From Catajapyx aquilonaris (Eukaryota): a stretch of DNA of 64,000 nt. Every line of letters starts with the position of its first letter. Positions within the stretch are counted from its first letter, which is position 1. The stretch covers positions 1 through 64,000 of the forward strand of contig JYFJ02001285.1 in the NCBI GenBank assembly GCA_000934665.2, given 5' to 3'. The position numbers were made by a program, and so were the translations under genes. Positions 2,990-31,434 of this stretch are shown here, piece after piece. The notes under the pieces were generated by a model. The model did not search any database and was not told the DNA's origin. It saw nothing but the letters and a program-made list of their open reading frames with translations.

Positions 2990-5900
2990 ATGGCGGACAG
3001 TGCGGTGTCATCGAAGGGGAAGAAAGTGAGTACAGGTGATGAGTACGTTGAATGCAATGGCTATTCGTCGCTGAGCATTGACGCTGACTCCCTGGAAGCT
3101 AACAATCCCTTGATCCCAAACCCCGCTGATAACAATGACCAAAACGGAGAGCTGGGCTTTGTCCCACCGCAAGATGATGGCCAGTCGCTACAGGAGCTGA
3201 TAGACTCGGAGCTTGCAGCGCTCAGAATAGGTGGCGATGAGCCGGTGATCCAGGAAGGTTACAGCCCCCACTCGGAGGAGGATGAGGAGGAGGAGCAGGA
3301 CAGTCTGGAAGGACCACTGCCGGTGCAGGAGTTGCAGCAGGTTGTCCCCGAGGAAGTGGAGGACCTGTATCCGGAGGAGGAGCCGGCACTGACTGCATTT
3401 GACCTGAAGGAGCTGGTGGCTCTTACACCGTCGCAGGCATCCACTATCCTGGTGGAGGACGACGTGGACCAACTGGCAGCAGCGGCTGCGGCCTTTGTCC
3501 CGGTGGACGAAGATGACCTCTTGTCTTCCCCCGACAACTCACCCAACTCACCCCCCAGTGACGACCTCTTAGGCTTCCATAACACGCATGAGGTAGAGAC
3601 TGTTGAGGACCCTGTGTGCGCTGTGGATGTGTGTGACACCTACCCAGACAGCCCTAACCTGTCACCCACTATCGAGGCCGGTATTAACGAGTCAATCGAC
3701 GAAGACAACATGGACCATGCCATCATGGAGGATGGCGAAGAGCCGGAGGAGGAGGAGGAGCAGGAGGTGCCGGAAGTGGATGAAATTGACATGACTGCCG
3801 TGCAATACGAAACCCCTTTCCTGCAAGAAGTGGTCGAGGAGGACTTCAAGCAGGATTTCCAGGAGACGCAGGAAATGGAGTCGATTGACCAGCCACTAAT
3901 TCCGGTCGTGGTCAATCTGCTTCATGACGATGAACCCTTCGTCACACTGCATGATGAAAGTGCTTCCACTAGCCCTACTACCACTGATGAGTCTGATGTA
4001 AGTCCGTCTAATTACATGTCAGCTTCTCTTTGTGCCCCATTGTCCTGTGTCTTAAGTGTCTTAATTACGTGTGTTCTAATTAGTATATAGTCCTGGGAGA
4101 GGAAAAAAAAAGAAAAGAAAAAGTGGGACACATCCACATCATCTCTTGTTGAATCATTACGCCACGTTACTTTTTTGTGCTGCGGTGTTATTAAAAGCGA
4201 TTGGTTCAATACACAGATGGAGCAGCAGTCATTAGGCGAGGAGAAGGAGAAGGTGTCTTCCAAGAAGAAGAAGAGTGATGGCGAAGGCAAAGAGAAGAAG
4301 AAGAAGAAGAGCAAGAAGTCACATGAGAAGGAAAACATCTCAATGGTGAGCATACATATCGGGTCGAATGGGGTCGATTCCCACAGCTTTTCACTCGCAC
4401 GTCGCATACGAGTGCCCGGAGGCCAACACCTCCCCATTGCCTCTGGGTAGTGGTCAGTAGTGGCCCAAAGGTATGACGGAATGCGAGGAATCCCTTCACG
4501 CTAGGCTTCACTTATCCGTCTGAAATGTGAGGAGACACACTATGTGAGCTGCTGAAGGAAAAGCTGGGGGAAGCCACCCGTGACTCCTGCTTTACTTGCA
4601 AGCTTGGGCTTTCTCATGTCATGCAGACCGGACCTACGTAGTGTGGGGGCCTTTTTTCTATGCTACACTGCCGGCAACTGCCAAGGTGGCAGGTTGTTGA
4701 CACAATTTAGTCCTCCCGAAAAAGTTGTGGTTTTTTTTTTTAAGTGTGTGAGGAAATCAGAGTGTTTGTGGGTCCATATGAGTGCGTGCGTGTTAGGAAT
4801 GGGACCGAGGTGGTGGTGGTGGTGGTAGTGAGGCTCATGGATCATCTCCAATCGCCTGTGCTGGTGCAACAAATTGTCAAATCACTCATGAGTTACGCCA
4901 GTGGTCATAAACATGCGGTTTTTCTCACTGTGGTAAGTATAGGTTGTTCAAAATATAGGAAGGGGGAGGGAGCTGGGGGAGAAACAGGTAATTGGTACTC
5001 GGCATGAGAATTTTTGCAGTGTTTTTGAGGCAATTTGTAGTGATAATGCCGCTTTGGTGCATGCGCCTAAGTGCAATCCATTCGAATTGAGGCTAATCTC
5101 GTTTTATAATTCCTCACCTGTTAACAAATGTACTAAAAAGTACCTCCCTTCCTTTTTTTATTTCAACACAGGAAAATGAATTTTGTTCAGACTCTGACGA
5201 TATTAAGTCGCCATTAAAAGAATCCTTTGAGACAGGGATCTCCATCACTGAATTGGTATGTTGATTTACGACAGTTTTTCTCACCACTTTTTATCAAAAG
5301 ATAAAATAATTACCTAATCAGTGGGGTAATTGGGGGAGGTTATCATGTCGTTCATTCATAATTCATCTTACATGTGCACGCCCTTTTTTTTTTTTTTTCA
5401 AAAAAAAATTGTTTTCCTCTTACACTAATTTTTCGTAACGTACCTTTTCTACATGTGTGTGCCTGTGTAGTTTGATTGTAGACTGCATGTTTTTTTTTGT
5501 TTTTTTTTTATTGCTAGAAAAATATGTTTACCAATGGAACTCAGTGTGCTGCACGAGAAGAAATACCTGGAATGAAAGAGACAATTGAAACAGGAGTATC
5601 TATCAAAACGTTGGTAAGTTTCTTGTTGAGCTGCACCATTTTCAGTTTTGTAGACGAGCATGATTTGAACAAAAAAAAAAAACATCCTTCTCTTTTCGTA
5701 TCAGTTTGGTTTTACGCCTGTTTTTAAGGTGACATGTCGTGACTGAATAATCTCTTAATGGATACCTCGTAACCTTCACATTTTAAAGCTACAGCGTTAC
5801 GGTTATTGAATATTTTGATTGGTGCTAGTGCAGGATTTCGCCACATTGTTTGGTAAAGAAAATTGTTATGAATTGCTCAGGAAGGATTTATAAGATTGCC

Positions 5901-8900
5901 TATTAGACTTAATGCTGCTGCATTTTATGACATCTCAAACAACATGACAATGTCCGCAACAAGTAGAGTGGTTTTGTGTCCTACCTTGAACATTACGACG
6001 AGGTATCTATTCAGGACGACAATGACCTATGCTAAGAATACTATCAGTTACTTTGCACAGTGGAGCATTTTATCTCGTTATCAGCGATCAAGGACGCTTC
6101 TTTTTATATATATAAAGTTGCAAGTAATCCCTCTTTGCAGGGGGGCATACGTTTTCTTTGTAACAATTTGAGAAGTTTGTGTGTGTGTCTTGCGTCTTGT
6201 GTGTTCTTATGTTTTGTTCTTGTTTGCATTTTTGCATGAGCAGAAGTCAGTCTACAATAATCAAATCCAAAAAGAGAATGAGATAATGCCTGCCATTCTG
6301 GATGATGAGTTGTCTGGAGTATCGCTTAAGATTTTGGTAAGTTGGCTAGTTATCATCTCATTAACCAATGGTAATGGGGGACACGGAGCATATTTTTTGA
6401 GGTGTTCAATCGACTAATTTGTTACGGCATGGATTGATGTTCGTCATTATGCATTTTGCTTTCTTAGCGAGAGACTTACTGCAATCAGGCAGCAAAGAGC
6501 ACATCAAAACACTCCATTTGCGAGGAAAACATTGACACTGGAGTTTCTATCAGAGAGCTGGTGAGTTTCATTTTTTTTTTTTTTGTACAGTTTAAATGCT
6601 CAGGATTGGGTCAAAAAAACAATTAATGTGCATGGCATGCACTATCGTTTATATCCTGGTGCTTGAACTAACTGTTAATGCTAAGCACTCTCTAGTGCCA
6701 GCAATCGTCAAGCTCAGAAGACATTTCTGGGGACTCGGTTAAAATACCAAAGAGCGAGGAGGAGATATTCAAGGGTGTTTCTGTCGCAGACTTGGTAAGC
6801 ATGGCCACTACAAAATGGGCGCTTTTACATGTCCTAACAAAGCGTGTGTGTGTGTAACTAACTATATTCTACTAACAGCGGAGGAGTTTTGGAGACTTAA
6901 CTTATTTGACCGATGACAACTTGCGCAGAAGCTCATCCGTTGACAAGGAGCTGAACGATATTAAAGTTTCAGTGAAAGCGCTAGTGAGTTTTTTTAAATG
7001 AATTTCCTGAATAATATCACTGCTTCAAGTGCGATTGGCACTGGGAGCACTGAGCTGTACATATAATATTTATTTTGTTGAAAATCATGCATGAGCTTTG
7101 CAGTTTTTTTTTTTTTTTTGCAAGCAAGTAGAATATTTTGCTTGTGCTTGTGACGAATGGCTTGCTAACATGACTAACATGTACTAATGCATTGCTACAT
7201 AGAGAGCGAGCTATGGTGACTTATCCAGGCTTGAGGATTTCCCACCGCAAGAGAATGCGCTTCGTAAAACAGTGTCCACACCCAGGCTTTCAAAACCATC
7301 GAACGGATGGGTAAGTCGCATTGAGGACAGATCTCAGAATGGCATGTCACTCGGGGGGGGGAAGGTAAAGGGATTTGTGGTGAATGGTGTCGTTTGCGTG
7401 GTGGTCAGGAGGTAAGTATGGGATGTACTTGTACACTTTTTGGGAGGACTGAATAGACTTGAGGTGCTTGAAGAACTGCACTGATGCATTTCCAATGAAG
7501 CCGCCAGTGGACGCAACACTAGTCGGATATCAATCTTCATCAGTGGTGTGTAAACAAGTCTTAGACTGATTGGTGTTGCGGCCAAGGGCTGCGTCTGCCA
7601 GAAATGTAACGAGGCAATTGAAAGAGTGGGAGGGTTTTACTGTTCACGTCGTGCAAACCTATCCCGTTGAATACACGGACTGTAGAAAGTGCCATTGCAT
7701 GCCAGGCTTATCAGGCAGCCACCGACTTGTCAAAATTAAGAAAGCATGCCTTTCTTGTAAGTTGTCACAGCTGCATGCTGATAGTAGCCGGTGGCAAGTA
7801 TTGAAAACATTGCACCAGTCAAGGCATGTTGCCAAGGTGCAGCCTGCATTAAGGCTTCCCCCGGCACTGTACAATGGCACTTGAACAATTGTTATTCAAC
7901 TGGAGTTTTATCTGAGCAGCTGATGGAGGGGGTTATTTCACTGAAAGTCAATAGCGTCAAGACCTGGTATCTATAGTCTCATGTTCTCATGGCAGTTATC
8001 TTCTTTTTCCCCCCTCCCATCCTTTAGCGATCGAGCTTCAACAAGTTTGACCAGCTGTCTAAGAAAACATTCTTGCATGTCCGATCCTATGACCCAAGCA
8101 AGGTTCAGCAGCAGTTTAGTGAGGTAAAAAGCAGAAAATGTCCGACGGGAAAAAACTAACAGTCATGCGATATCCTCTGTACTGCCTTGCAACTAACCTT
8201 TCAGCATGTGCTACTCATCTGAAAATTAATTTTTCAGCGTATATATTTTTTTAAAGCTTTCTAATGCAATTTTTTACTTAACAATGGTGAAGAGAAATGT
8301 TTCATGACAGATGATTATCAAAACTCTTGAGCTGTCTATGAGAAAAATAATAAAAAAAAGTAAGTTGTTTTTTGCTACTAAACCCAGTAGGGAAATTTTA
8401 TTCGTAAGCATGAAAATTCGCAGTTAGGAATTAATTATTTTGCGACGATATGAACTTCACAAATTGTCACAAGAGCTCAGTTTTAATAATCACTTGTCAT
8501 GCGTTGTAGGATGTGCAATATTTTGTGGAAATGGATTTTTTTTTTACCAAAGTGTGTGAAATTTATCAAATATACTAGTGTTTGATCCCAGCCTGTAATA
8601 ATCGCACTAACCCGATATTTACAAATTTTCCACAGGAGAATTTCCCTTTGTATGCGCTTCTGGACAAGCATGCCAACGTAAGTCATGCCCAAGGGACTTT
8701 TTGCGCCCTTTGTAATTAACTAAAGCAGAAGCTGTGGCATAATTTCTTTTTAAAACCAGGTGAACTGAAACACTTACATTTTTCTCCCCCCTCCCTCATC
8801 TTCTCTTTCAGCAAGCTGGAACTGAAGAGGTGACCAACAATTGCAAAAAATGTGGCAAGCCTGTGTTCCAGATGGAGCTGATCAAAGCGGAAAAGGCAGA

Positions 8901-11900
8901 CTGGCACAAGAATTGCTTCCGATGCAAGGAGTGCAGCAAGCAGCTAACGTAAGTCAAGAGTACGAGGAACGTGAGGAAAAAGATCCTCGATGCAAAACGA
9001 TCCTACATTTACAATATATCATTTAGAGGAGATGGTTTCCATCCTGGCTCGAGTGTGCATGAAGCAATTAATTACGAGCAGATCATGAGCCGTAATGCGT
9101 GAGACAAATTGGGAGCATTCGTCAAGTATGTAATGATGGCAATGGATTGGCCAACCATGATGCTCGGTAGTTAAGGTGAAAATATTGATGGATAGTTAGT
9201 AATATTTTTACCGAAATATTGATAGGATGCTCCCAAAGTATATACGCTGACATAATACTGTATAAGCCTAATTGCTGCCATTCACCATACAATTACTTCC
9301 AAGAATGATGTCTACAGCATATCGTCGGTGATCATGCAAAACCTCGTATCTCCTGCAAAAACCAATGGAACATACGAGGTTTTGCGCGATCACCGACGAT
9401 ATGGCAAAGGAATCATCTTACCCCGAAGCAGTTACTGACAACCTTGTATTGACCTCTAATTATTATCAGTAATGTAATGACTGACCCACTAAGGCAAGTG
9501 GTAAACACTCAACTAAACGAACACGGCTCATTCACATGATTTTCCAGGCATGACTTACGTTTTGGCATGGAAACCATCAGTAATCTACTGCATATGCGTT
9601 ATGAAAATGTGGAAGGGGGCTTTCCATATTGCTGGGTAGACCCCTTTGATAGTTACATGTACGAGTACATTCTCGCGGATGTGATGGAACATATTCAGTA
9701 TTGCAAACGCGCCTTTTGCTTCCTGGTATAGTAAACCAGTTTTGTGCATCTCATAAGGACAGGCGAGTTTTTCTACCACAATCAGCAGAAACATGATGTA
9801 AGAAAAATGCCTGGAATGTCGGGCTTTTCTGGGAAGAAATGAATACAATCTGTGATGTAACGCTTGAGAAGGAGGCCTTTTAAGTCGTGGATGTTGTTAT
9901 TAATTCCACGACATCCATTGGTTTCGCTACTGACGAACCCTTAAAATGCTGTCACTTCCATGTGCCCTAACAGACGAAATGTGTGCATATTGACAGTCGT
10001 TAATTTTGCAAATATTTCCACACAGGATGGACATATACAGCAGTCATGAAGGTGAACTCTACTGCAAGCCTCACTTCAAAGAGCTATTCAAACCTAAGGC
10101 GGTTGTGGAGGATGACATTCATCCAGGTGAGCGTCACGCTCGACTACTACAATATTGAACCACCTTGTACGCCTCCGATATGTAATTAACAATTATGTTT
10201 TAAATCAGTTCGTCACAGGAAACCCGAGATGATCATCCGTGAGAGCCAGCCGATGGAGCTTCCTCCTGACGTGATCAGAAGTGAGTATCTGTCATGCTTC
10301 ACTTATTGCAGTGCTTGCTGTAGCCGAGTGACTAATGCAAAAGCCTCCCGATAAAAATGGTAGCAGATGTTAATGGGAATGTGGGCAGGGCGTGGAGAAA
10401 GTGGGGGGGGGGGGGTGTCCCAAGTCCACAGTGTCAAGTGCATTTTTGCATAATTTTGCAGCCGAGGTAATTTGCAAAGGGGGCAAGGAACTTGATTGTG
10501 GGTGGCGGACGTCAATTAATTCAATTGCGCCCTCAGCAATTATAATCCCAGTGACATTCTTTCGCTGCTCTCTTTTGCTCCTGACGCAACTTGATGTGGG
10601 GACAGGGCAAGTAGTTCAGCTCTTTTTTTTTATTTAGGGAAGATGCTTTTGTTTGAAGTGATGAGCTATTATGTGGAAAGTAACAAGAAAAGACGTGAGC
10701 GGATAAGCATTTGATATGGGCTGCGGCCTACTTGGAAGCCTCGCCCTGTAGGTGACTTAAAGTGCGGTTTGGGGCTTTAATGTGTGGGCCTTCTCATAGA
10801 GGCTTCTCAGGGAAGTAAGGTTTCCTCGAAGGATGTGATAATTCTTTAGCGGTTGTGTCAGATATTGTGGCCCCGTTAGGAAATGCGTGGTTACTCGGTG
10901 TGCGTTTCTGGAAAGGCAAATTGAAGGTGATGTTTGATCGCAAGTGCAAATGAAGCGTGCAAACAAAATGTAAGCACGTCTGGTATGTTGTGGACACACA
11001 GAATGACTGCACCCTTCTTGCAATTAAGAAATGGGTGTTATTCAACAGACCTTATCGCATTTGAACCGTAAAAAAAATAAATTTTTACGGCAGGTGACGC
11101 TTCACCGGCTTTATCATCCTGGCTTTCCACTTACGTTTCCTTTTTAGATACGGCAGCCGTGCTTCATTGGAGTTGTGTGAAATATGCTTTCAGAAAATAT
11201 TAATGCCAAGCAAGGAACGTTTTGACATGCAATCTTGGCATTTACGAGGAAGTGGTGCACCGTAGAGTGATTTTACCAGAAACTGCATGGAAAAAAAGAA
11301 ATCCTTTCCTTTCCCGTTTCTGCCTCAAAAATTTCGCTACAAATATCCACCATCCTTCACCCAAAAAAAAAAAGTTTCATTTTTTAAAAATAAAAGTGAG
11401 CTGCTTTCTCTAAAAAAAAAGAGGAGGGCAGGAGTGCAGCAGTGATGTGTGGCTTCATGTCAAATGGGTAATTATCCCGTTATGGCAGCAAGTTAAGGAG
11501 GACCCAACAGTGGGGAGGGGGGAAAAAAAGAAAAGAAGTTGGGGGTGGCAAAGAAGGGCTGATAAAAAGGCCCTGCTCGGGGGATGGATGGCTTTAGCTG
11601 AGGGAAAAAGGAAAAGGGAGTGGTCTTTTGTTTATAGTGGGAGGGGAGAGCTGGAGGGGGGGTTGTATCCAGGATGTGACTCCACATTGTAAACCTTTAG
11701 TATGTGCTTGGAAGCCTTGTGAAACTGGTGTTGAAATTTTTTTAAAAGTAGAAAACATGGAGCAGGAAAGCAGTTGAGTGGTTTTCGTCGAAGTGCGTTT
11801 GGATCGTGTGTGCTGATTGCGTTTCTTTCTTTGTCGTTCAGGCTGCGACAAACCGGACTACGGGCTGGAAGAGCTGTCCGCTCTGAATGTGAAGTCAAAG

Positions 11901-14900
11901 TTTCAGCTGTTTGAGAAGTCGGGCGAGGATGATGCGGAGGTCGAGCGGTCACCAAGCACCGTCAGCGTCAAGAGGTCTGCCAGCATCCTGAGTCGTTTGG
12001 CCAAGTAAGCGCCTTTTTGGAAGTCACAATAACAAAAATGTTTGCCTCACGACAGTTGCCAAGTTACCATGTTTACTTTCCCTTGAACTGAATTTAACTT
12101 TTTTACACTTGTGAAATTTCTAAATCCAGATTCCAGGCTAAAGGTATGGACATTGGAGTGACGGATGACTCCCTGAACGGGATCCACTACGAGGAGACTG
12201 ATTCCTCTTCGAGCGAGGAGGAAGAGGAGGTTGACGGAGAGGCAGGGGACGAGAACGGGGAGGTGGTGAGGTCGTCACGAAAGAAGAACAGGAAGGAGCG
12301 TCCGGTGAGCTTCACCAAGATGGACGACATTCGCTCCAAGTGGGAGGGAGGAGTGACTGACAAGAAGGAGGAGCTCACCAAGGAGAGGAAGGAGGAGCTG
12401 CAGAAGTTCAGGGCACTGCTGTGCATGGTCAGTAATTGAAACCGGCGTTGATTGCGACTCAGATTGGAAACTCTCACATTAAATTTCATTTCAGGGCAAG
12501 CAAGGCAAACTGAAGGAGAAGTACGAGCAGGCAGTGATGGACACGGAGAAGACCTCGCCCAAGAAGGAAATAGACATCCGCTTCGACTCCAAGTCCTTGA
12601 AGGAGCAGTTTGAGAGGGGAGAGACGCTCACCTCGGACGATCAGGATTCCCAGCTCAAGGAAGAAGACATGTCTGTGTTCGAGTCAGGTATGTACTGTTA
12701 ATAGTTTTTTTTTTCATCCTGTGTAACGTCTGCAAGGGATGCTTACAATGATGTTGAATGCCACTCCTATGATCAGGTGTGGCTAAGCAATCACGGAGCC
12801 TCTTCAAGCAGTTGGACGCCACTGCAAGTCAAATACAGGCGAAGACACCAAAGCCAAAGGAGGAGAGGAAGATGAGCAGAGAGGTAAGGAAATGGTCTCG
12901 CACACAATTTCCATATCTCACGCAAACACAGTCTTCAAAATATTGTTCGGAAAGTACAGCATTCCTGCAAACAAAACTCTCAAAAAGGTTTCATCCTTTT
13001 CGTGGTACCCAATCGTCGGCCAAAGGCGGCAAAAGATAAGCGCTAAGGTCTGGTTTTCAGATCCAGCTGGCACCCCAGGTGTCCCAAGAGGTGGTCCGAT
13101 CTGGCGACCAGTTGGAGGACGTTCAGGTAGACACGACGGACCTGACCTCCAGGTTTAAATTCTTTGAGATGTACAAGGAGCCAGAAAAGATGCGCAGGCA
13201 GTTCAGAATCACTCCGCCAAGGGAGGGACAAGACAAGGTCGGGATGGGGGGAAAAAAATAATTCATGCCTGTTGATTTGACGATGGCAGATACTCACACT
13301 GCATGGCGAGAGAGAGAGAAGATTGCATTTAACAAAGTTTTGTTTGGAATCGTGATCGACTAACTCACATGACGACCGAATTTTATTGTTAGAAGTGTGA
13401 TACGGCAGTGATTGACATAACATTACATTGCGATTGTGCCACGTGAACCGTAACATGTCTGGGAAGAGGCACTTTTTGACAGACAAGCTTAGTAATGCAC
13501 ATCATGTCTTGTATTTTTTTTTTAACCAGCTCCGTTCTGGGTTCTGCTTGAAACTTTAAAAATTTTACGCTTCTTGCTGCTAGTGTTTTAAAAATTGCAT
13601 TTTTTAATAGCACTTACAAAGCATGCCTCAAACCGGTTTTTTCTGATTCATGTTTGTTTCGTCGCAGACTGAGTCCCCCGAGCGTGAGGTTTACCGCGAC
13701 CCAACAATCGTCCGGTGCGACGACAGGGCAGAGGAAGGTCTGCCCACCAGCAAGACCACCAGCCGCATGCTCTCAATGTTCAGGCAGATGGAGCAGAAGT
13801 CAAACAACGAGATGCCAGACGGTGGGGATGAGTTTGCCGGACAGATTTCTCATAAAATTGATCTATTGAAAGAAACGTACCGTAAAACTAAATATTTTTT
13901 TCAAATAATTTCAGGCCCCAAGCCACTGAAGCGCTTCACCCCACCACCAGACTACACCAAGGAGTCCGAGACGGAGACGGAAGAGTCCGAAGAGGAATCG
14001 GATGAGTCTGAGGAGGAGTCCGAGGACGATGGAAACCAGAACCCAAACATCGTGAGGGCATCGGACAAGATTGAGGACGAATTTCTAAAACAGGTGAGCA
14101 ATTTCGTTGGTTTGCAGGAAGCTGACAGGGGTTTCGTGTAAAGGGGCGCTTTGATCCGCATTAGGCATTAGGACGGTTGATTTCCCTGACTCATTAAGTC
14201 CCTTCTCGTAAGGCCCACGCTCAGAACTCCGCCCGGGCAAAAACACTTCGAGCCAAATTCGAGAAGTGGGAAGCCACGGTGGAGAAGGAGAACCGCCTGA
14301 ACAATGGGAGCGGCGCAGGTGACGATGAAGAGTTCACCCCTTCGATCGACACCGCCAAGAACTTGCGGGCAAAGTTCGAGGCTCTCAAGACTGAGAGTGC
14401 AGCCAGGCCTCAAGAGAAGCCCAGGCCAAAAGTGAACCGCTTCGTGGTGAGTAACGGAAGCTCTTAAAAAAAAAAAAGGTGGAAGTGGCCGAAGCAACAT
14501 CCCTCCCCTCCCCCCCTCCGCATTAAAAAAAAAGAAAAAAATCTCAAGTTCAATCAGAATCTCTTGCAAACATTTTTTTTTTCTTTCTCTATCTCTGTAA
14601 TGTGCGTCTAAATCCAAGTCCGATATTGTATTTGGTGTCATTATTAATAAAAGTGCAACATTTGACGTTCTATTATTGTACATTGAGCACTTTAAAATGA
14701 TTTCTTTCACCGAAAGAAAGCAAGTGCATGGATAATATTTTCTTAACAAAAGGGCCGGTTGCGTGAGTGAATGTTGCGCGCAAATGATCGGGTTTGTTTT
14801 CCATTTCTTGTTTTTCTTTGCAATGGAGACTAACCGGTATTTTTGCGCTAACTGTCATTCATAAACTGGCCGTAATTTTGCAATTTTAAGTGCATGAGGT

Positions 14901-16494
14901 GGATGTGTTGTTTTTTTTTGGTTGGTGAAGGTTTTACGTTGCATTTTATTTTTGGTTCTGAGTTGTAAAAATTTATGCAAGGCCTTTTTATTTTTTAAAC
15001 TCACACTCGTTTGGTGATTTTTTTTTTTTTGCTGCTGCTGGTAGCTTTTGTTATTAATTCGCATGTTTTAATTTATTTATTGGTGATATGGTGGGCTGGT
15101 CTGTGATAGGATTAATGCATCGGGATAATTTGAATGGCAAGGTCGACTTCTAATTTTTTTTTGTGTGTGTTTGGCTGTCCTTTAACGAGTCTTTTGTGGC
15201 ATGACCCAGCATGTGCTGAGTTTGCTTGCGATTCCTCCTTTTTTTTTATTTGTTGGGTACGTAGCTTAGGCAACCGATGCCTTTTCGTGACTGTTGCTGT
15301 GGGGGAAGATGCTCAGGACCCAAGTAGAAGAGAATGAATAACACAAAAGCACGTCGGATATTCCAAGCGGAAGGACTGTTCGAGAAGACTGATCCACTGT
15401 CTTTTTGTCTACATTTTTTTCAGAAATACTCTGAAGAGACTGTTGAGCAAGAGAGTGCAACTGCCTAAGGAAGTCTGCTCATTATTGAATTATTATTATT
15501 TTTTTTGCAATCCTCCTGTCATCCTCTGTTCATCTCTGCTTATGTTTAGAAAATACTGTGCGTCTATATGGTCGAGGAAAAAAAAAAAGAACAAACAAAC
15601 AAACAAATTAATAAGAGAAATGGTGTCGTGTGTGATTTGTCTTTGGGAATGAGTCTTTTTTAGGTGGGGCGCAAATTGATAGTCTCCCGAATTTTAAATG
15701 TGTGGTCAAGCTTTATGTACATTTGCAATTTGTGTCTAACTCTTTGGAAGAAGAAGAAGAAAATTATTGTTGTGAGCAAAGAAATTATGTAACCCTGTTT
15801 TTTACAATTTCTGAACACAACATTTTTTATATACTATCTTTCAAACTTCTACACCTTTTAGTTATAATTTTTACACTCACATTGATAAAAATAATTCCTT
15901 GATTTTGATCCTGAAAATGCTGGTTGCTTATTAAGAGCACCTGTAATTATTATTAAAAATTGGTTTCATTTGTATAGTTTTTTTTTCTAATGTATTTATT
16001 TTTAACGAATAAAAATAAGCTTGATTTAATACACAACAATGACAGTTATAAGGCCTTGCATAATATCTTTTTTTTTTGCAACTCGGAACTGAAAAGGTCA
16101 CGTTACTGTGACGATGACAAGAACGTAACATATGCACAAAATTTCCCACAGGAATTTCGCGCAACTGCTGACAATATTTGCAGCATCTGTAGCAAACAAG
16201 TGTACGCTATGGAGAAAATGGAAGTGGAAAAGAAGGTTTTCCACAAGTCCTGCTTCAAATGCACCCAGTGCCATTGCATATTGAGGTAAAATCTTAACGT
16301 ACTTATTAACAAAAACAAAAAAAAAAAGGTGTTGTAACAATTGCATGAATATTTGCAGAGTTGATTCGTACACGACCAACAAGGGAAAGCTGTTCTGCAT
16401 CCCTCACTTCAAGCAACTCTTCATATCCAAAGGCAACTACGACGATGCCTTTTTGGATCTGCCGCAAAATGGGATTGCCAATGGCACCCACTGA
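2990..16494 (+). CDS. Multi-exon LIM-domain actin-associated protein (LIMA1/EPLIN- or Xin-repeat-protein-like; two LIM domains, long acidic N-terminus)
   Basis: GT-AG exon chain in continuous frame: 2990-3997, 4217-4345, 5172-5255, 5518-5613, 6244-6336, 6468-6560, 6696(or 6702)-6794, 6879-6983, 7203-7310, 8028-8123, 8812-8948, 10026-10126, 10209-10280, 11842-12004, 12130-12427, 12495-12687, 12777-12883, 13061-13237, 13668-13821, 13915-14093, 14213-14446, 16152-16285, 16359-16494 (TGA). LIM1: CKKCGKPVFQMELIKAEKADWHKNCFRCKECSKQLTMDIYSSHEGELYCKPHFKELF; LIM2: CSICSKQVYAMEKMEVEKKVFHKSCFKCTQCHCILRVDSYTTNKGKLFCIPHFKQLFISKGNYDD. AATAAA at 16541. Which N-terminal exons co-occur in one mRNA is not known. 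Confidence 0.88.
9318..9403. repeat. Inverted repeat / MITE-like hairpin (32-bp arms, 22-nt loop) in LIM-gene intron
   Basis: CATATCGTCGGTGATCatGCAAAACCTCGTAT (9318-9349) vs ATACGAGGTTTTGCgcGATCACCGACGATATG (9372-9403), 2 mismatches. Confidence 0.85.
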
Positions 16495-16789: not shown

Positions 16790-19700
16790 CTAACTTGATC
16801 CATCAGATTCACCAGATTTATTTCCTTGATTTCCCACCTCCATGTCCTCTCCCTTTTCATCTCCACTTTCCGTGTCCATTGAACCAGTCGGTGCATTCAG
16901 CACATATCCAGTCCCACTGAAGGGAGACACCTTCTCTTCCGTGTGGCCTATCACTGTGCCAAAAGTGTGTGGGACTGACGGTCCGGCAGGTTGCACCTCC
17001 GACTGCGACGAAGCTTCAGCAGCCTCTTTGAGCCGCTGATCCAGCCCCGGGCCGATTGGATGGTGCACACTGCCAACGCACAGTTCCAACTGATCCGTCT
17101 CGCCGTTGTAGCGAAGAGTCTGCAAAAAGACACAAATGCTAATACTGCACAATTATTAAGCAATAACTTACTTTGCCTGGAAGTCCAGGAATCTGCGAAT
17201 GCTTTCCGTGTTCAAGCCCGACGTCTCGCTGCATCTGTCTGTAAAAAAGTCCACCTCTCTTGAACAGCTCGGGATACTTTTGCGCATATTCCCACATGGT
17301 AGACCCCAGCAGGCTAACAGTCAGCACCAGAGTGGCTATAGAAGCATCCAGGCCATCCTCGGTCTCAGAAGCACCTGCACCCTCTCCGCTGCCTTTCATG
17401 CTTCCGAGGCACCGCAGTATCTCTCTCTCTAGGTTGAACTGTGGCGCAGCAGGAAGCGGCGGCGGTGGCGACGGTTCACTCAGAAGCACTACCTGGATGC
17501 GGTCTCCATTCTGGGAAGAAACAAGTACCGACTTTCAACATTTGTTGTGTTGCCGCAATATGCTCACGAGAAGAACTGTACCTGTAAAGGCAGCGGCAAG
17601 TCGTCATCATCCGAGGCAGGTGCCTTGATTTCCTTTGGAGGGAACCCGTACATGATCTTCTGCACGCTGGCCATGTTCACAAGTCCCACACTCTCTATAT
17701 GTTGGGTAAGTTCGGCATACGCTGCATTTTTGGAGAGTGTCAGCTGGGCCTGGTGATGAGAAAAGTCGAGTCAATAAAATCAGGCAATTTAGACACAATG
17801 GTAATGATAAAGCCAACCTGCTTCCCATCCGAGGTGACCATCCTAACCACTTTCCTTCCGTCTGCTCGTGAACTGCTGTTGGGCTTCTTGGGTGCCTCCT
17901 TCATTTGGACAGCCTTTTCGGCACCTTCCTTCCCTGCTACCTTAGCCACATTGCCTGTTGAAGCGGCCCTGAATGGCTTACCCTTCCCTGCCGACTCATC
18001 CACTGCTCTCCTCCTCCTCTCGTCACTGGCCCGTGCCTGATCCTGTGCCGCATGCTTCTCAATATTCTCTTTGATCCTGTGCTCTGTCTTGCTCAGTCCA
18101 AGCTCCTCCTTGTGCAGGGTCTACCGCAGCGAAAGGACAGCCCAGAATTACCTATTTTGATCTATTCACAAATCTCGTGGTCATCTCACTACCTTCACAC
18201 CGGTAATGATCATTTTCGTTGGCGGCTCCTCCTTCCTGGTATTCGGTAACTTGCTGTGATCGGTCTGCTCTATTTTGGCTTCAGGCGACTTTGTTTGCTC
18301 TAGTATTTGTTCAACTACATTCTGTACTATCCTCTCGCTACCAAAGGCACCTGCAACAAGAGTTACTGGTAAACCTACCAAGAAAATTTGCTGTGAATGT
18401 TACCTACCTGGAAAATGTTTGTACACAGTTTTGGTGGCCGCCTCATAAACATTGCTGTTGCGGCTTGCATCAGACTCATGTTGGAACCACGGAACTTTTT
18501 CAGTGACTGTTTTCCCGCTCCATGTGAACGTTACTGCAATCTGCAGGTAAAGAAAAGCGGATAGTACGTGAAGCTTGTGAAGCATATGATTCACCAACCT
18601 GCTGTGGCAAGTTGTCGTACTCCTCTCCGTCCCACCAGTGCATGAACCCACACCTGCAGTGCGACCCATGGCTCCTGGTTTTGGTCTTATCACCATCGAG
18701 GTATTCCACTGAATTGTCCCCTCTCACATGACGCAGCTTGGGGCTGTAGCACCAAATGCACTGCTCCATCAGAGGTTCACAGTCCTTGTCTAGGATCAAC
18801 TCATCAGCCTCAGGATCATACCTGTTGCAAATGGGTCTACTGTTAGCTCTGGTTAACTCCAGGACAACTGAGGTGATACCTGCACTTGATTCCCTGTGTC
18901 GGAAACTGGTATATTTTCCCAGCGGCAAGCGTCGCCTGCTGCTGGGCCAAATTGTACAGCAGTCCCCCTTTAGTGAGCCATTCAGGCCGCCACCGTTGCT
19001 CGCAAATGGCATCACAACTGAGGCAGCGGAAAAGGCGTCTCTCCTCCACAGCCCTCCGAGCAGTGCTGAGTGCCATCGTTGGATGCACCCCAACCACTCC
19101 TGAGCGTTTGAAAATGTGGTGCGCAACGTCGGCCACCAAGGCTGGGTGGACTCCATTATCACGAAGGAACACCCCGTCCATGGCAGACACCAGGCGAGAC
19201 ACATAAGACTCATTCAGGCTCCGATCTCCGCCAATCACACACCATCCTCCTGGATGAAACTCGATGTAATCGTTCAGAAGACTCTGGCTCACGCCCCATA
19301 CCTTTGGCATCTGGGCACGTGGGAAGCGAGGAAGTGGAACTGAAAAGAAAGTTATTGCAGACTAGCTTTCTTCAACGAGTCAGAATGACAACTAAGACAT
19401 CTAATGACGAGCATGGTCAGAAAATGTTTACATTATGGTCAGAGTCTAATGGTCATCAAAAAGTCACGAGTTGAGGTGAACAGACAGCACATTACGGACA
19501 TAAAGTTCCCTGCACATGATTTCGAATAAAACGAAAATGCAGCTTAGATGCGAGTTCGAACGTGACCTTGATTTTTATAGCGTTTCCTGTTTTGCACACT
19601 TTTTCACCTCACTTATCAGCATGAAATATGAAAGTGGAGAGTATGAAAAATTCACCCAAGGCACTTCGAAGCACGGATGTCATCAGTTAATGTATTCAAA

Positions 19701-21115
19701 TTTCAGCTGATAAGACATCAGACAGAAATAAAACTCACGTCCTTTGACCCCGACAAGTGGGATGTAATGTGATCTGGAACCGCTGCTCCAAGCCAAACAC
19801 AATGGCTTATTCAACTCTCCTGATTTCCCTCGGCAATCCCTCGGTTGAACCAAGCCAGGCAGAAACACAGCTGAAAAATGCGAAGAGAAAATATTAAAAT
19901 CGACCCAGCAGTTCACACTGTACAGGAAACGGATCGTAATTCAACCTGAATAGTCTCCAGAACTGCTCATCCCTTGAAGCGAATCCAACAAAATTATGGG
20001 TCTCTTGAGAACATTTGCCAATCCGAACACGTGTATGTTCCTCAGCCCCAACGGCTCTTCCTTTGCAGGCTGGAACTCGGGATCACATTCGGCTATAATC
20101 TCTTCCCATTCATTCTCATCCACAAACTCCTTCAACAATTCCTGTTTTGCATCCCAAACATTAATTTCTTTTTCGCTGAAAAATAACATTCCCAGCGTAC
20201 CTTGTACTTATGGAGATTCGTCTCGAAGTGCTTCTTAATATCACACCTGAGCGCATGCCAGAAGAGCTCCCTCCCAACAAGAGCCCTGGAAATGGCATGG
20301 ACCAAACAGTGTCCATCTCCCTCAGCATGTATGGGAACAAGCCTCTCTTCACCATCATTAAAGGCCTGAATAACCGACATGGTGTTGGCCAGGTAGAATC
20401 GGCTTCCGGACACATCCCTTCCATACCCAGGCACATTTATATGCTGCGGATCGATCAGAAAGGCCCGCTCACCCAACAAGCTACAGTCAAACGTATCACG
20501 GCTGCTGATATCATGAATCGGGACAACCCCTCCTGTCCGCTTGTCCACCCCGAATATGGTAAGAAGCGGCGACACCAGGCGACAATGGTAGTTGTTCAAT
20601 CCAAGCACCTTAATCTGAAATGACATGTGTCAAATGTCAAGCTCTGGTATATTAAAGAGGAAAAATGTTATGTACTCAGGATTGCGTTAAAAGCCGCAAA
20701 CATGAGCTATATTCACTGCGTATGTTCGTGCGATGGTTACTGAGCAATTGTTACTGCGACAGAAACTGAGCAATTGTTACAGCGACAGACACTGAGCAAT
20801 TGTTACTGCAACAGATACTGAGCAATTGTTACTGCGACAGATACTGAGCAATTGTTACTTAGCGAACGTTACCATTTCAGGCCCTTTCCTGACCGCCCTA
20901 GATCCCAACAGAATGTTTCTGAGAATGGGCATCATTGCGGAGCTCAAGTCGGTGACAGGCTGAACCTCCAAGATGGATCGGTGCTCATGTCTCTGTCCGC
21001 ATTCAGGGCATTCAATGCTGATGTTATGTGACGGGAAGTACAGCTTCGTGTGGCACTTCTCATCGGGACATATCCCAGTCAGGAAATGGGCTTGTTTGGC
21101 AGGTGGACCCGGCAT
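16790..21115 (-). CDS. VCPIP1: Deubiquitinating protein VCPIP1 / VCIP135 (OTU domain plus UBX-like region)
   Basis: Exons (minus): 21115-20873, 20614-20201, 20141-19946, 19870-19739, 19339-18880, 18821-18599, 18540-18408, 18350-18193, 18120-17818, 17749-17582, 17510-17172, 17119-16790. Diagnostic motifs: IECPECGQRHE, GDGHCLVHAISRALVGRELFWHALR (catalytic Cys), LGLRNIHVFGLANVLKRPIILLDS, AWSSGSRSHYIPLVG (catalytic His), CRCGFMHWWDGEEYDNLP, YGFPPKE. Confidence 0.95.
20739..20859. repeat. Minisatellite, 26-bp unit x ~4.6, in VCPIP1 first coding intron
   Basis: Unit ACTGAGCAATTGTTACTGCGACAGAT starting at 20739, 20765, 20791, 20817, 20843. Confidence 0.92.
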
Positions 21116-21519
21116 TGTTCTATCAAAAAATGCCCCTGCAAAAAAAAAAAAAAATGTAATATGAAATTAAATAAATTGGAACAGAAAATATATGCCAATA
21201 TAATATGGAATGTATCTTACTTTTTTTGTGCCTGTCACTACTACTTTTTCATCTCCAGCTGGTGGTTCCTCCTCGCTTCTGGACCCGTCAGCAAACTGGG
21301 CAGACCTTCCTCCAAATGGCCAAATTTACAGGTGTTGATAACCGGGAGTGAAATGAGGAAAAATAAGAAGTTAAAAAGAGTACAAAGGGGGAGGGGGGAA
21401 AAAAGGAAGACGACAAATAAAAAAAAATGAAAGTCAAAGGCTCTTTACGGTGGCGTGTACGAATAGGCTGCAGAATCATACGGATTTACACTAATCTGAA
21501 AGGAAGAAGACGCTGCGTT

Positions 21520-21725: not shown

Positions 21726-22807
21726 TGCTCCATTAGGAAAGATAAACAACTAATATTGCACCGTATGGACCTGGTATGGACCGTATGATTGCATCAAATT
21801 GCGCAAATCACACAGAGATTTAACATGCAAGTTTTCTAGGTCGTAGTTAGACTAGAAAATTTAAGCAGGATCATTTTTTTTTTATCCTTACTCGTGACAG
21901 ATTGTAACACATGCAGTTGTAATGTAATGGAATGTAACTGTTATCAGTACGGTTATCAGCAGCTATTAATTAAAGGGGCGCATGTTCGATTACGTCAAAA
22001 ATGCAGCAAAATCGACCTTTGGCCGTTCACATTTGATTGTAACATGGAAATGGTTCCAACTTTGTCATAATAGTCAGCAAATTATTGAGAAACACGATGA
22101 ACACTATGAAAACAATGCCAGATAACTGTTATTAGTGACTAAAGCACTGTTATCACCAAGAGCGAATAACTGTTATCACATATTTGAAGAGTCAATCATG
22201 TGAATGATGTGGCGCAGGCGCAGTTAATAATAACATCAGTGCACACGCATTTGTGTTAATATTTGTACAGTACAGTACATCATTACAAAATATGTAACTG
22301 TAATGTTAATATAACAGTGCTCTTTCCTTCGAATCCGCTACTTTAAGTGCATTATTGACCTTTAACCTTTCCGATACTAACAATTGCGCAAGCGTACATT
22401 CCAACTTCAATTTAAGTTGTAATTAGAAACATTGAAGCCATATTTGTCCGCCATATTTGAGCTCCGAGCTCTCTTACTATAATAAAAGTTAATGCCTTAT
22501 GTAAATATAGCGTTATGTACATCGTTTTAAATATTTGGCAATTGTATTTCCCCAATTTAATGTTTTAATTAATGAGTATTTCCTCCACGTATTTAATTCC
22601 AACTGGCAACCTTGCATTATTCCACCTCCCCCCCCCCCCCCCCCCCCCNATCTTCATCGTTTCCGAATAAAAAAAAAGTAAAGGAAAAAAAGAGCTAGAG
22701 AGAATAAAAGAGGAACAAAATTCCAAGTGTTTACTCCTACTACAGTGTTGTGTTCTCCTTGAGTTTAATAAGCCCAGAGACCCGAACCCAGAACAAGTGC
22801 GTAGAAA

Positions 22808-24530
22808 ATGGCTGAGAATCTGAAGAAGAAGCCGAGCAAAGGAATCCTGAAGGCGTCTTCCAGCTTCGACGCCCCAGACAGAGCAGAATCCGCAAAAAGA
22901 CTGTGAGTCACTCTCTCGAATATAATAATTGACATAATTTTAAAAAACAAGAAAAAAAATGGAATACATTTTTTCTGTAATAATAATTGTTATATAAGAG
23001 TGCAATTAACGCAATGGAACATTCCAAACAGCAGGTCGAAGGAGACGAAATGGGATGAGATGAACATTATTGCGACGCTTCATCCGCCGGATAAGGATTA
23101 CGGGCATATGAAGATTGAGGAGCCCAAGACGCCGTACAATTACGAGAAGGACGGATCTGATGAAGAGACGGGTGGGCTTGATGCGGACATGCTGGCCAAA
23201 AAGTATGGGTTTGTTAGTACGTTGCGTAGGAAGCCGGATGCTAATTTGAGTGGTTTAAAATTTTGCAGGATTCAGCTGGGTGCGAGTCAGCCACCGAAGG
23301 CGCTCGTTCCGGAGGAGCCTGAAGACGAAGAGTCCGAGGAGGAAGAGGAATCACCAGAGGAGAGAGGTAATTCAACACAAATCGACAGGAATCGAAGAGT
23401 GTAAATGTTATAGACCAGGAAAAAAAAAATCATAAATTTGTGTTATTTAGACTTTTAAAAGGTGCAGTTTTTGCCATTTTTTCCTGAAAGAGCGGTACGT
23501 ACGCCATGAGGGCCAAGTTTCGGGACTCTCAGTACTCCGAAAGTGGGTTAGGTAGCCTGGACATACAAACAGATGCATTTTCTGCTTCATTATGTAAGAT
23601 TTAGACTTTAAAAAGTGTAGTGTTCTGACTTTTTTCTTGAATCAGCCACATGTAAGTCATGTGTGCCAAGTTTCAGCACTCTCAGCACTCTGAAAGCAGG
23701 TTAGGTAGCCTGGACATACAAACAGACACACTTTCTGCTTTATTATGTAAGAATTAGACTGGAAAAAGTGTTGTTTTGGGACATTTTCCCAAAAATCAGC
23801 TGCATGTGAGCCATGTGTGCCCAGTTTCAGTAGTCTCAGTGATCTAGAAGTGGGTTAGGTAGTCCAGAAATACAAACAGAGGCAGTTTCTGCTTTATTTC
23901 GTAAGATATAACTTATACGAAGAAAAAAAAGTGTTGTTTTGGGATTTTTTCCTGCATCAGCGGCATGTAAGCCAAGTTTCAGCCCTCTCAATAGTCCAAA
24001 AGTGGGTTAGGTAGCCCGGAAATACAGACACACTTTCTGCTTAATTATGTACGATAAGTTGCAGGTACAAAATAAGTTGATTACTGCACCTTTATTATCT
24101 GAGCATTCGCATGCCAAGAGTGTTAACATATTTGAGCAAGGACCGAGTGTGTAATATGATTATATTTGCAGCCCATCGCAAAATGTTCGAGACCAAGCGC
24201 AAGCGGCACTATAACGAGTTCCATGCAGTGAAGTTGGCACGGCAGCTAATGGAGAAGGATGAGGATGGTGATGGTGATGAGGATGAGGAGGACGAGGCTG
24301 CTGAGCTGGAGGAGGAGTCGCAAGAGCCTGCTTCTGGAAGTGGTGGCGTCCAGGCCAGTGCGGGACCCAGCCGTTGCGTAGATTGCGGCGGAAGGCGGAA
24401 CGGGAGAGGAGGCGAGCAGGAAGAAGATGTCAAGGAAGAGCAGGAGGAAGGGAAGGCGGAAAGTGAGACGGAGGTGGGAAAGACGTTGAGCACTACCGCA
24501 GAGATGGATGAGGGTGAGGCGGGCGAATGA
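22808..24530 (+). CDS. PPP1R2: Protein phosphatase 1 inhibitor-2
   Basis: Exons 22808-22902, 23032-23202, 23269-23366, 24172-24530. Motifs KGILK (SILK), KETKWDEMNIIATLHPPDKDYG, KIEEPKTPY (GSK3/CDK Thr site), FETKRKRHYNE, acidic tail. Confidence 0.95.
23447..24055 (-). mobile_element. Four tandem ~153-bp units resembling the 5' end of non-autonomous Helitrons, in PPP1R2 intron 3
   Basis: Units 23447-23600, 23601-23753, 23754-23907, ~23908-24055 share GCCAAGTTTCAG..CTCTCAG..GGTTAGGTAGCC.GGA.ATACAAACAGAC..TTTCTGCTT.ATTATGTAAGAT. Minus strand reads A|TCTTACATAATAAAGCAGAAAGTGTGTCTGTTTGTATG...GTCTAA. The tandem repeat is certain; Helitron identity is inference. Confidence 0.65.
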
Positions 24531-29689: not shown

Positions 29690-30207
29690 CACTCAGCTCA
29701 ACCTTACAGACCCACCGGGGGCGCTTCAATTCATCTCGAGGCGGCCAACGGACCCGCAGAACCCGAATAGGAAAATCTCAAATCGCCGATCAAACGCCGC
29801 CATCTTTGGAACGGCGGCCATGTTGGAATTCGAACGGAAAAAACTCACGGGGCGCGTTCGGCACTCCCAATTGTTTACACACGGGTGCGTTCAGTCCGCA
29901 TACAAAATAGCAGCTTATAGCTATTCGTACATGCTGATATGTCCGTACCCGTCCGTACCGAGCAGTACACACACTAATTGCGCGCACACACACTGCACAA
30001 TGCAATGCACTGCTGATATGCAATCATATTCTGATATGAATTCGCTGTACCGTGTCAGTACGACGATCCGCAGCATTGCAGCTTAGCTATATATTATAGT
30101 TATATTCTAATAGCTACCTAGATGTCTTCCATTTTTGCACATTTTTGCACGTTTGATGCCACATTTCAGCAATTTTGATGTCTGAAAGCGTGGAATTTTG
30201 ATGGGGT

Positions 30208-31434
30208 ATGACAGCATCAGCTGATAGGGAAGAGATGCGTAAGTACTACCAGCTGGGCCTGGTTGTCCTGGCCGTTGTGAGCGTGACGGCCTTCGTGTTC
30301 TACAAGAATGAGTACGACAAGCTTCATAAGGTACTGGAGGTTCTGGACATTTTTGGGAATGCGCAGCAGGCTGCGGATGAAGAGCCGCATGGAACGGAGT
30401 ATGACTTCTTACAGGATGGACCCACATGGCAGCGGATCGACGACGCTTGGTATGATCTTGATATGATTTGTAACGATGTGCAGCTTACATTACTTATTAT
30501 TTGCAGGTATGGGTACGCAGCGTTTTATATCAAAGGACATGTGAAGGCCTTACTGATTGGACCGCCTGCGGATGAAACGCTGTTTGATTGCCACTTGCGG
30601 CACAGTGCTAAATGGCCGACCACACAGGAAAAAGCGATTGTGATTCCGGCGACGACCACAGTGCAACCGCAAGGGGTGTTACCAGCGCCGGATATGTCTC
30701 ATCGCAGCCTGTACTTCGCAACGTGCAGGGCCAGCCAATTGCCGATAGCAGTACATTTAGTGCCGCGAGGCGGGAGTGTGCTGAATTACGCTTCGTTACC
30801 GGTGTACAAATCGCCGGAGATGAACACGACAGGTCGTACTGGTGTGTGCGTACTGCCGCACTTACCGGTTCCGCCATCAAAAGTGGCTGAGATGATAGCG
30901 ATTTATAAGCTAGTCGGGGTTACCATGGTGCTGTTTTACAACAGTGATGTTCTGCAGAATACGAACAAGGCGATATTGGACTCGCGCGGGTATGGCTATG
31001 CGACGTACCTATACAGATGGAACTTTCCGTTTGCAGCAAATGACGAGATAGCAACCGAGGTGGTACAAAACGACTGTGTGCACAGACTGGCTGGGATTGC
31101 GGACACAGTCATAATCACCACCGCCAAAGATCTGGTTACACCGCGCCACCATCACTCATTGGCATTGCTGTTCTCGGATTACGGTGCTAACATCGGCAAA
31201 TTCCAGTTTCCAGAGCCGCACCTGTGCGGCCAATTTCCCACACAGGACAAAACGCATGTACTTGCCTTCCGTCCTGCTGTCCTACTATCGCAGGGAACAC
31301 CAAAAACCCAGTTGGTCTCGCAACGAGTGGCCTCCGTGCATTCATGCAAGCAATTGTTGCGTCGGCACAGCGATATCGCAACAAAATTCGCTGCGTCGCT
31401 CGACGCATCGCCTTACCTTAAAAAATGGACATGA
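30208..31434 (+). CDS. Type II membrane protein, glycosyltransferase family 92 / DUF23-like (divergent)
   Basis: 408-codon ORF (start 30208 or MRKYY at 30235) with N-terminal TM segment LGLVVLAVVSVTAFVFY; probable 57-nt intron 30450-30506; GT92-like blocks WYGYAAFY, GVCVLPH, AEMIAIYKLVGVTMVLFY, QNDCVHR. Confidence 0.7.
   Translation: MTASADREEMRKYYQLGLVVLAVVSVTAFVFYKNEYDKLHKVLEVLDIFGNAQQAADEEPHGTEYDFLQDGPTWQRIDDAWYDLDMICNDVQLTLLIICRYGYAAFYIKGHVKALLIGPPADETLFDCHLRHSAKWPTTQEKAIVIPATTTVQPQGVLPAPDMSHRSLYFATCRASQLPIAVHLVPRGGSVLNYASLPVYKSPEMNTTGRTGVCVLPHLPVPPSKVAEMIAIYKLVGVTMVLFYNSDVLQNTNKAILDSRGYGYATYLYRWNFPFAANDEIATEVVQNDCVHRLAGIADTVIITTAKDLVTPRHHHSLALLFSDYGANIGKFQFPEPHLCGQFPTQDKTHVLAFRPAVLLSQGTPKTQLVSQRVASVHSCKQLLRRHSDIATKFAASLDASPYLKKWT

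Follow-up and report, generated by a model that had tools for sequence, protein, structure and literature searches.

The first 64,000 nucleotides of contig JYFJ02001285.1 of Catajapyx aquilonaris (assembly GCA_000934665.2; this whole stretch is hereafter called the window) carry, at positions 5172–8123 of the plus strand, an array of eight mini-exons within a gene for a LIM-domain protein. These exons are very probably conserved cassettes with phase 0 at both borders (phase 0-0), which arose by tandem duplication and encode part of the N-terminal, mostly disordered region of an EPLIN-class protein, upstream of its first LIM domain (LIM1). The evidence comes from the anatomy of the exons, the identity of the gene, a contig in which seven of the eight exons are skipped, and the annotated isoforms of relatives, in which the same borders and hybrid exon junctions occur. 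All splicing evidence for C. aquilonaris comes from the single public run that contains the locus. The kind of this run is not on record; we treat it as RNA-like, because GT..AG joints in its contigs coincide with exon borders of the gene model (15 of 29 joints were listed and are considered here).

An earlier note on this DNA had described eight exons of 84–108 nucleotides, all with phase 0 borders, of which six end in one half of a motif and six begin with the other half. All eight exons are present where the note had placed them (8/8 have lengths divisible by 3), and the peptides are exact: six exons end in GISITEL, GVSIKTL, GVSLKIL, GVSIREL, GVSVADL and KVSVKAL, and six start with KNMF, KSVY, RETY, RRSF, RASY and RSSF. 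Mini-exon 1 (5172–5255, 84 nucleotides; ENEF...ETGISITEL) is 41 per cent identical to mini-exon 2 (5518–5613, 96 nucleotides; KNMF...ETGVSIKTL), which is itself a paralogue of mini-exon 4. Mini-exon 3 (6244–6336, 93 nucleotides; KSVY...DDELSGVSLKIL) ends in GVSLKIL, and mini-exon 4 (6468–6560, 93 nucleotides; RETYCNQ...DTGVSIREL) is the orthologue of a KQTYC..ATGISIKEL exon of relatives. Mini-exon 5 (6696–6794, 99 nucleotides; CQQS...KGVSVADL) carries the first half of the motif at its end and no second half at its start. Mini-exon 6 (6879–6983, 105 nucleotides; RRSFGDL...IKVSVKAL) is followed by mini-exon 7 (7203–7310, 108 nucleotides; RASYGDL...SNGW), which starts with a second half and has a decayed first half (TVSTPRL) inside. 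Mini-exon 8 (8028–8123, 96 nucleotides; RSSFNKFDQLSKK...QQQFSE) starts with RSSF, lies directly before LIM1 and is present in the RNA-like contigs. In all eight, a pyrimidine-rich tract leads into the AG acceptor, and the donor is GT (GTAAGT in four, GTGAGT in two, and GTATGT and GTAAAA in one each). The earlier note had remarked that most of the exons escape a scan for open reading frames; none of the eight is among those of at least 90 amino acids.

Could such an arrangement of open frames and splice-like sites be a chance occurrence within an intron? Codons for [VI]S[IVL]xxL immediately before GT occur at eight sites on both strands of the window, and six of these eight sites are confined to 1.8 kb of the plus strand, at the ends of mini-exons. 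In 30 block shuffles of the whole window the mean number of such sites was 2.1 and the maximum was 7, so that the six sites in 1.8 kb compare with about 2 expected in 128 kb. In favor of chance, the second half alone (AG followed by [KR]xx[FY]) shows no enrichment across the window (65 sites observed versus a shuffle mean of 75), and a seventh plus-strand match of the first half plus GT, VSIAEL at 986–1005, is located 2 kb before the start codon and is itself probably fortuitous. Of the eight plus-strand sites of AG plus [KR]xx[FY] between 5000 and 8200, six are mini-exon starts. Against chance also stand the RNA joints that confirm mini-exon 8 and the homology of mini-exons 2, 4, 6 and 8 to cassette exons of relatives, at scores that none of the 200 shuffles of each exon reach. 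For practical purposes, the clustering of the motif and the homology refute this explanation, to which we assign a negligible probability.

The gene that holds the array lies on the plus strand, starts with an ATG at 2990, extends at least to 16452 and encodes two LIM domains, each in two exons. LIM1 (8812–8948 and 10026–10126) is supported by joints and by alignment to an orthologue. LIM2 (16152–16286 and 16324–16452) is of the EPLIN type and is followed by ...FISKGNYDDAF; a Pfam LIM match (E-value 1.2e-05) at 15978–16289 is the sole Pfam family among the large exons of the window. Membership of the EPLIN class (LIMA1, XIRP2 and LIMD2, with CG33521 in Drosophila) is defined by a LIM domain with an Eplin motif of 22 residues (K.KGNYDEGFG..QHK..W) directly behind it (Koch et al. 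2012, PMC3305314, in part). In the window, the sequence after LIM2 (...CIPHFKQLFISKGNYDDAF) is followed by an intron and agrees with the start of the Eplin motif as given in the supplement 5 rows of that paper; the insect consensus continues beyond LIM2 with GNYDEGFGxDxHKxKW, of which the window's LIM2 exon holds the start only. Closeness to known structures was assessed on the cockroach orthologue P0009 rather than on the split LIM exons of the window, and both LIM domains align between the two. The best match of the orthologue's LIM2 in the PDB is 2d8y, 'EPLIN protein' (E-value 1.1e-20; 2lzu, LIMD2, E-value 2e-15), and its LIM1 is nearest to CRP1 among the PDB matches. Two LIM stretches were found by Pfam in six of the seven orthologues scanned (the short isoform P0033 has one), and nothing but LIM scored above the curated cut-off in these seven. 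Since LIM2 is closest to EPLIN and precedes an Eplin motif, and LIM1 is CRP1-like, the gene is, judged by sequence, one for an EPLIN-class (LIMA1/XIRP2/LIMD2) protein with two LIM domains, of the insect type.

Upstream of the array, coding exon 1 (2990–3997, plus strand) encodes an acidic region whose N-terminus aligns to the cockroach orthologue, and ends before a GTAAGT at 3998. An alternative donor inside this exon, after 3025 (GTGAGT at 3026), deletes 324 codons of acidic, poorly conserved sequence when used. Both donors are in phase 0, and both forms of the exon occur in the RNA-like contigs, the short one as joint 3025>4217 and the long one as contigs continuous over 2996–3930. Next comes a Lys-rich exon (4217–4345, plus strand; 129 nucleotides, phase 0-0), which ends in ...EKENISM, has joints 3025>4217 and 4344>8027, and serves as a conserved anchor upstream of the array; relatives read ...KKSKK..EKENISV at this place. 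All 10 N-terminal coding exons (exon 1, the anchor exon and the eight mini-exons) are phase 0-0; of the 11 exons that follow, just 3 have lengths divisible by 3. The spliced coding sequence stays open in either case: over 688 codons to 14446 if the mini-exons are left out, and over 1238 codons if all of them and the long form of exon 1 are included.

The array has clear counterparts in relatives. A query with the 98-residue exon at 12131–12424 matched 308 proteins at an E-value of at most 0.001, and a query with the cassette region of the cockroach orthologue matched 220; 120 matches of each were listed. The named proteins among the matches listed are all from insects (stick insects, cockroaches, termites, Orthoptera, Odonata, thrips, bugs, lice, beetles and Hymenoptera), none of the matches listed for either query is from Diptera, and the orthologues are variously named 'LIM domain and actin-binding protein 1', 'xin actin-binding repeat-containing protein 2' or 'uncharacterized'. 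C. aquilonaris itself is absent from the protein collection, in which the best identity is 67 per cent. Most species have a long series of isoforms whose lengths step by about 30 residues. At least one complete motif is present in 43 of the 120 proteins listed for the 98-residue exon, and the remaining 77 are short isoforms or have variant residues such as NVNVKSL and CRSF. Isoforms of the cockroach, two termites and a damselfly differ by whole blocks that are cut exactly between ...xxL and [KR]xx[FY], for example KSTYTNQ...CGPINSL, KQTYCNQ...GISIKEL, and the block from RRSFGDL... through ...GVSVKAL. In insects, the order of elements is ..KKSKK..EKENISV, ..DDLSNVxVKxL, KSTY..CGPIxSL, KQTYCSEA..ATGVSIKxL, xRSFGDL.., KAxSLGDL..TGVSVKAL, RASYCSL.. 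and KSSFSKFDQLSKKTVLHVRSVDAxKVQKQFN (in annotated isoform series KSSFSKFDQLSKK..), followed by LIM1. Conservation of the split motif, which the earlier note had proposed as a test, is therefore borne out by the same borders across insect orders.

Local alignments of the window's exons to those of relatives, with 200 shuffles of each exon, relate most of the mini-exons to particular insect exons. Mini-exon 8 is strongly conserved, with scores of 97–127 in 11 of 11 relatives. Mini-exon 4 corresponds to the KQTYC..GISIKEL exon, with a score of 76 against both termites that 0 of 200 shuffles reach, and mini-exon 2 has its best match in the same termite exon. Mini-exon 6 corresponds to the RRSFGDL.. 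and ..GVSVKAL exons of relatives taken together, which form a single block in Tribolium as well (score 60), and mini-exon 7 to their RASYC.. exon. Mini-exon 3 has a KSTYxNQ-like start and a DDxLSxVSxKxL-like end, the latter resembling the end of the relatives' ...DDDLSxVSVKVL exon; mini-exons 1 and 5 match relatives weakly. Compared to its insect relatives, the window therefore has extra copies (mini-exons 1, 2 and 5) and one exon where they have two (RRSF.. and ..VSVKAL). In two isoforms of Apis cerana (P0086 and P0183), an odd hydrophobic insert (PVLFLSFLFDAYPG...) stands directly behind GVSVKAL; its appearance suggests a retained intron or the use of an alternative donor rather than a coding cassette.

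The annotated isoforms also contain hybrid motifs. Among 19 species sets, 9 have a first half that is spliced to more than one partner within the species. VSVKVL is joined to KSTY or RRSF in the cockroach and to KSTY or KSSF in Cryptotermes, in which ISIKEL is likewise joined to RRSF or KSSF. Bacillus rossius joins VSVREL to KSAF, KQTY or RRSF, the louse joins VSVRAL to KERY or KSSF, the stink bug joins NVCVKDL to KLNY or KSSF, and three bees join NVNVKSL and GVSIKQL to KSSF, CRSF or TQxY. These cases come from a table of first halves with several partners that was checked by eye; an automatic count of alternative junctions (200) was inflated by alignment noise, and a count by groups with identical LIM1 (8 of 31) was not used because some groups merged several species of Hymenoptera. 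The expectation that new junctions would yield hybrid motifs thus holds in the annotated isoforms of these relatives, for example with VSVKVL joined to KSTY, RRSF or KSSF. The stronger claim, that any pattern of skipping rebuilds a complete motif, is overstated: among the nine exons from the anchor exon to mini-exon 8, 23 of the 36 possible forward junctions are complete and the other 13 are not, because mini-exon 5 starts with CQQS, mini-exon 1 starts with ENEF, mini-exon 7 ends in NGW and the anchor exon ends in NISM.

For C. aquilonaris, one contig joins the anchor exon at 4217–4345 to 8028 (joint 4344>8027, GT..AG), so that mini-exons 1–7 are skipped and mini-exon 8 is kept. This contig has a depth of 24.3, and the observed junction, NISM/RSSF (the slash marks the exon border here and below), is not a complete motif. 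The 14 other GT..AG joints listed fit the gene model and include 8121>8810, which links mini-exon 8 to LIM1. The earlier proposal that splicing sets the number and identity of the exons is supported insofar as seven exons are skipped in this contig and isoforms of relatives differ by such blocks; its other half, the inclusion of mini-exons 1–7, has no junction among the joints listed.

Several observations weigh against our reading of the array as a set of working cassettes. Not one of the 15 of 29 joints listed falls inside 5172–7310, the coverage of 5204–7339 is low (depth 0.4–7.5), and loose contig ends at 6586 and 7122, within poly-T introns, suggest contigs that are unspliced or chimeric; parts of 5172–7310 that lack clear coverage count as evidence in neither direction. 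The skip joint itself comes from one contig of one run of unrecorded kind, with 24 letters on its shorter side. A half motif is not present at every exon end, as the 23 of 36 complete junctions reflect; many of the relatives' alternative junctions do not resemble the motif (for example ...TEE/KSSF, ...QQQ/KSSF, ENISV/KSSF); and the isoforms of relatives are models from annotation pipelines.

Some of these observations would also fit a different history, in which mini-exons 1–7 are relics that are no longer spliced in and the 4345>8028 form is the sole product in this species. The only junction seen across the stretch skips all seven exons, a 40-residue query with mini-exon 6, which read on into the intron, found no protein of the species in the protein collection, and the coverage of the mini-exons is low and partly intronic. 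Yet all seven retain open frames, good AG and GT sites with a pyrimidine tract, and the motif, and even the copies that lack a clear one-to-one counterpart (mini-exons 1, 2 and 5) have kept the first half. In addition, many insects have annotated isoforms that contain the orthologous exons, and with 15 of 29 joints listed an absence of inclusion cannot be claimed. We therefore regard the relic scenario as very unlikely, and we infer that mini-exons 1–7 are spliced into some transcripts of C. aquilonaris.

The proposed origin by tandem exon duplication is supported by the identity between mini-exons 1 and 2, by a family of 28-nucleotide DNA repeats at the 3′ ends of mini-exons 2, 3 and 4 (79 per cent identity), and by the match of mini-exons 2 and 4 to one termite exon. 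The introns of the array have only T-runs in common, from which it follows that the duplications are old, and some copies are lineage-specific. We propose that one exon, with flanking introns that interrupted a conserved motif of about 17 residues, was repeatedly duplicated in tandem. The motif would read hydrophobic-x-T-G-[VI]-S-[VI]-K-x-L/[KR]-x-[ST]-[FY]-C-x-hydrophobic. Because the introns cut the motif in the duplicated exon, most exons start with a second half, and their last residues are the first half of the following copy. Skipping a run of exons preserves the frame, and most junctions rebuild a hybrid motif, so that splicing alters how many motif copies the protein has, and the linkers that separate them, while leaving no broken copies.

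What the junction motif does is less certain. The earlier note had read it as an amphipathic helix that probably binds F-actin. We modeled two orthologues, P0033 and P0010, with AlphaFold2 (alignments of 37 or 38 rows; border positions were deduced from isoform differences in related species). Both models are poor overall, with mean predicted local distance difference test (pLDDT) scores of 49.6 and 51.0, as expected because the protein is mostly disordered. In P0033, a predicted helix at 97–109 spans VSVKEL/KKTY (block pLDDT 61–63), and no helix is modeled across ISIEQL/KSSF. In P0010, predicted helices at 47–52 (pLDDT about 45–50) and 104–115 (block means 57 and 49) span ISIKEL/RRSF and VSVRAL/RASY, respectively. 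Hence, three of the four complete junction motifs are modeled as helical, although at low confidence (pLDDT about 45–63), and the fourth has no helix. Amphipathicity was not recovered: the helical hydrophobic moment of the complete junction 14-mers (mean 0.31) exceeds that of shuffles in none of 23 cases (P <= 0.05), and so we drop this description. A beta-strand, considered in view of the V-S-V-K alternation, was rejected, as the moment calculated for a strand is even smaller (mean 0.14).

The unsplit motifs downstream, which had been taken as related, are all present on the plus strand (LNVKSKF at 11883, DDIRSKW at 12323, KSLKEQF at 12591, KTLRAKF at 14240 and KNLRAKF at 14357). They lie within the central exons (11842–14446), which are supported by joints and whose matching stretches in relatives are predicted helices. 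In orthologues, motifs of this type (…LRAKFE.., ..LKEKFERGE.. and ..DIKCKWE..) are placed in predicted helices with pLDDT of about 76–85. Since they end in F/W-E, these [KR]xx[KR]xKFE-type motifs look like a different class from the split motif, and a more confidently helical one.

No Xin repeat or other actin-binding Pfam family matched the seven orthologues at an E-value of up to 10, although HMMER filters drop most weak matches and a very faint likeness is possible. A PDB sequence search with the orthologue returned 30 matches, each with its best-scoring stretch in or beside a LIM domain (residues 702–777 or 1272–1402) and none with it in the cassette region (510–700), and the ESM Atlas gave no usable match to the cassette region of the cockroach protein. 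The motif may be a short helical element that binds a cytoskeletal partner. The LIM domain of EPLIN is reportedly flanked on either side by regions that bind actin (PMC13329885, in part), which makes F-actin a sensible guess; we consider it a possible, rather than a probable, partner.

An equally sensible guess is a docking site regulated by phosphorylation, because the Ser/Thr of [KR]x[ST][FY] is conserved. More broadly, the array may be alternatively spliced with a motif that is not an F-actin-binding helix but a short linear motif for regulation or partner docking (such as a [KR]x[ST][FY] site that is phosphorylated, or a peptide docking on the adjacent LIM domain or another muscle protein), or with exons that mainly set linker length. 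The conserved Ser/Thr at position 3 of the second half (RRSF, RASY, RSSF, KSTY, KQTY), the lack of significant helical amphipathicity, the low confidence of the junction helices, the absence of Xin or other actin-binding Pfam matches in the seven orthologues, and the assignment of the better-predicted downstream helices to another class all agree with this alternative, and the actin-binding regions of EPLIN and the helices predicted across three of four junction motifs speak against it. We judge its probability to fall just short of an even chance.

A further alternative cassette exon lies between the LIM domains at 13061–13237 (plus strand; 177 nucleotides, phase 0; containing ..SRFKFFEMYKEPEKMRRQFRITPPREGQ..). 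It is both included (joints 12881>13059 and 13235>13666) and skipped (12881>13666) in the RNA-like contigs, and the 59-residue block that matches it is also alternative among Cryptotermes isoforms.

In the rest of the window, a minus-strand gene at 17000–21200 stands tail to tail with the LIM gene and encodes a VCIP135 N-terminal domain (Pfam E-value 1.2e-34 at 20132–20629). Pfam matches also mark genes for protein phosphatase inhibitor 2 (IPP-2; 22907–24530, plus strand), a glycosyltransferase of family 92 (a weak match; 30202–31434, plus strand), a SEP-domain protein (p47/NSFL1C-like; 31734–34160, minus strand), a cyclophilin-type peptidyl-prolyl isomerase (CWC27-like by eye; 34895–38178, plus strand) and a basic helix-loop-helix protein (TAL/SCL-like by eye; 52184–53209, plus strand). 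The window contains three N bases, and the open reading frames at 22565–22939 and 40254–40538 contain X residues beside G-runs (at about 22.6 and 40.4 kb).

Like other EPLIN-class proteins, the protein has a C-terminal LIM domain of the EPLIN type followed by the Eplin motif (KGNYD..F), and long flanks of little structure that contain short conserved helices. LIMA1, too, has splice forms at its N-terminus (PMC13329885, in part). Unlike the rest of the class, the insect-type protein adds a CRP-like LIM1 and the mini-exon array before it. The closest parallels are isoform series of other insects, such as those of Periplaneta americana (X5–X21), Bacillus rossius (X4–X35) and Apis cerana (X5–X31), which have the same exon order, borders and skipping.

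Repeated small symmetric exons are found in titin PEVK, nebulin, tropoelastin and Zasp52. In these systems, too, tandemly duplicated, frame-preserving exons are used in varying numbers in structural or cytoskeletal proteins. Tandem exon duplications in general feed alternative splicing (Ivanov and Pervouchine 2022, PMC9013439, in part). The window's array differs in that its exons are not mutually exclusive but drop out in runs, and in that the conserved element straddles the exon border, which makes the junction, rather than the exon, the conserved unit. As a product of exon duplication it is tidy but ordinary, and since the gene family, the orthologue isoforms in public annotation and the principle of tandem duplication are already known, no general view is changed. 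We found no paper on the splicing of the insect gene or on the split motif in the open-access literature and bioRxiv, and the presumed fly counterpart, CG33521, is not named in the title or abstract of any paper found there; its muscle expression is listed in one table (PMC7928361, in part). The insect EPLIN-class gene is thus almost unstudied.

Xin repeats are 16-residue actin-binding repeats of XIRP1 and XIRP2. Like the split motif, they are short, have basic and aromatic positions and are separated by variable linkers, and the EPLIN class includes XIRP2; the resemblance is by eye only. Some orthologues are automatically named after XIRP2, yet the seven that were scanned have no Xin match. 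It is conceivable, although we think it quite unlikely, that the exon junction itself is the conserved unit, a modular EPLIN-class binding element, possibly an ancient relative of Xin-type repeats, with intron positions kept by selection. If this were true, any splice choice would yield whole hybrid motifs, and tissues, including muscle, could tune the number and spacing of contacts, with actin or another partner, beside LIM1.

Whatever the motif binds, the array illustrates well, in a natural setting, that the duplication of a symmetric exon, combined with an intron within a motif, lets splicing vary repeat number while frame and motif remain intact, and the copy number of the motif offers a simple handle for probing what the N-terminal part of the protein binds.

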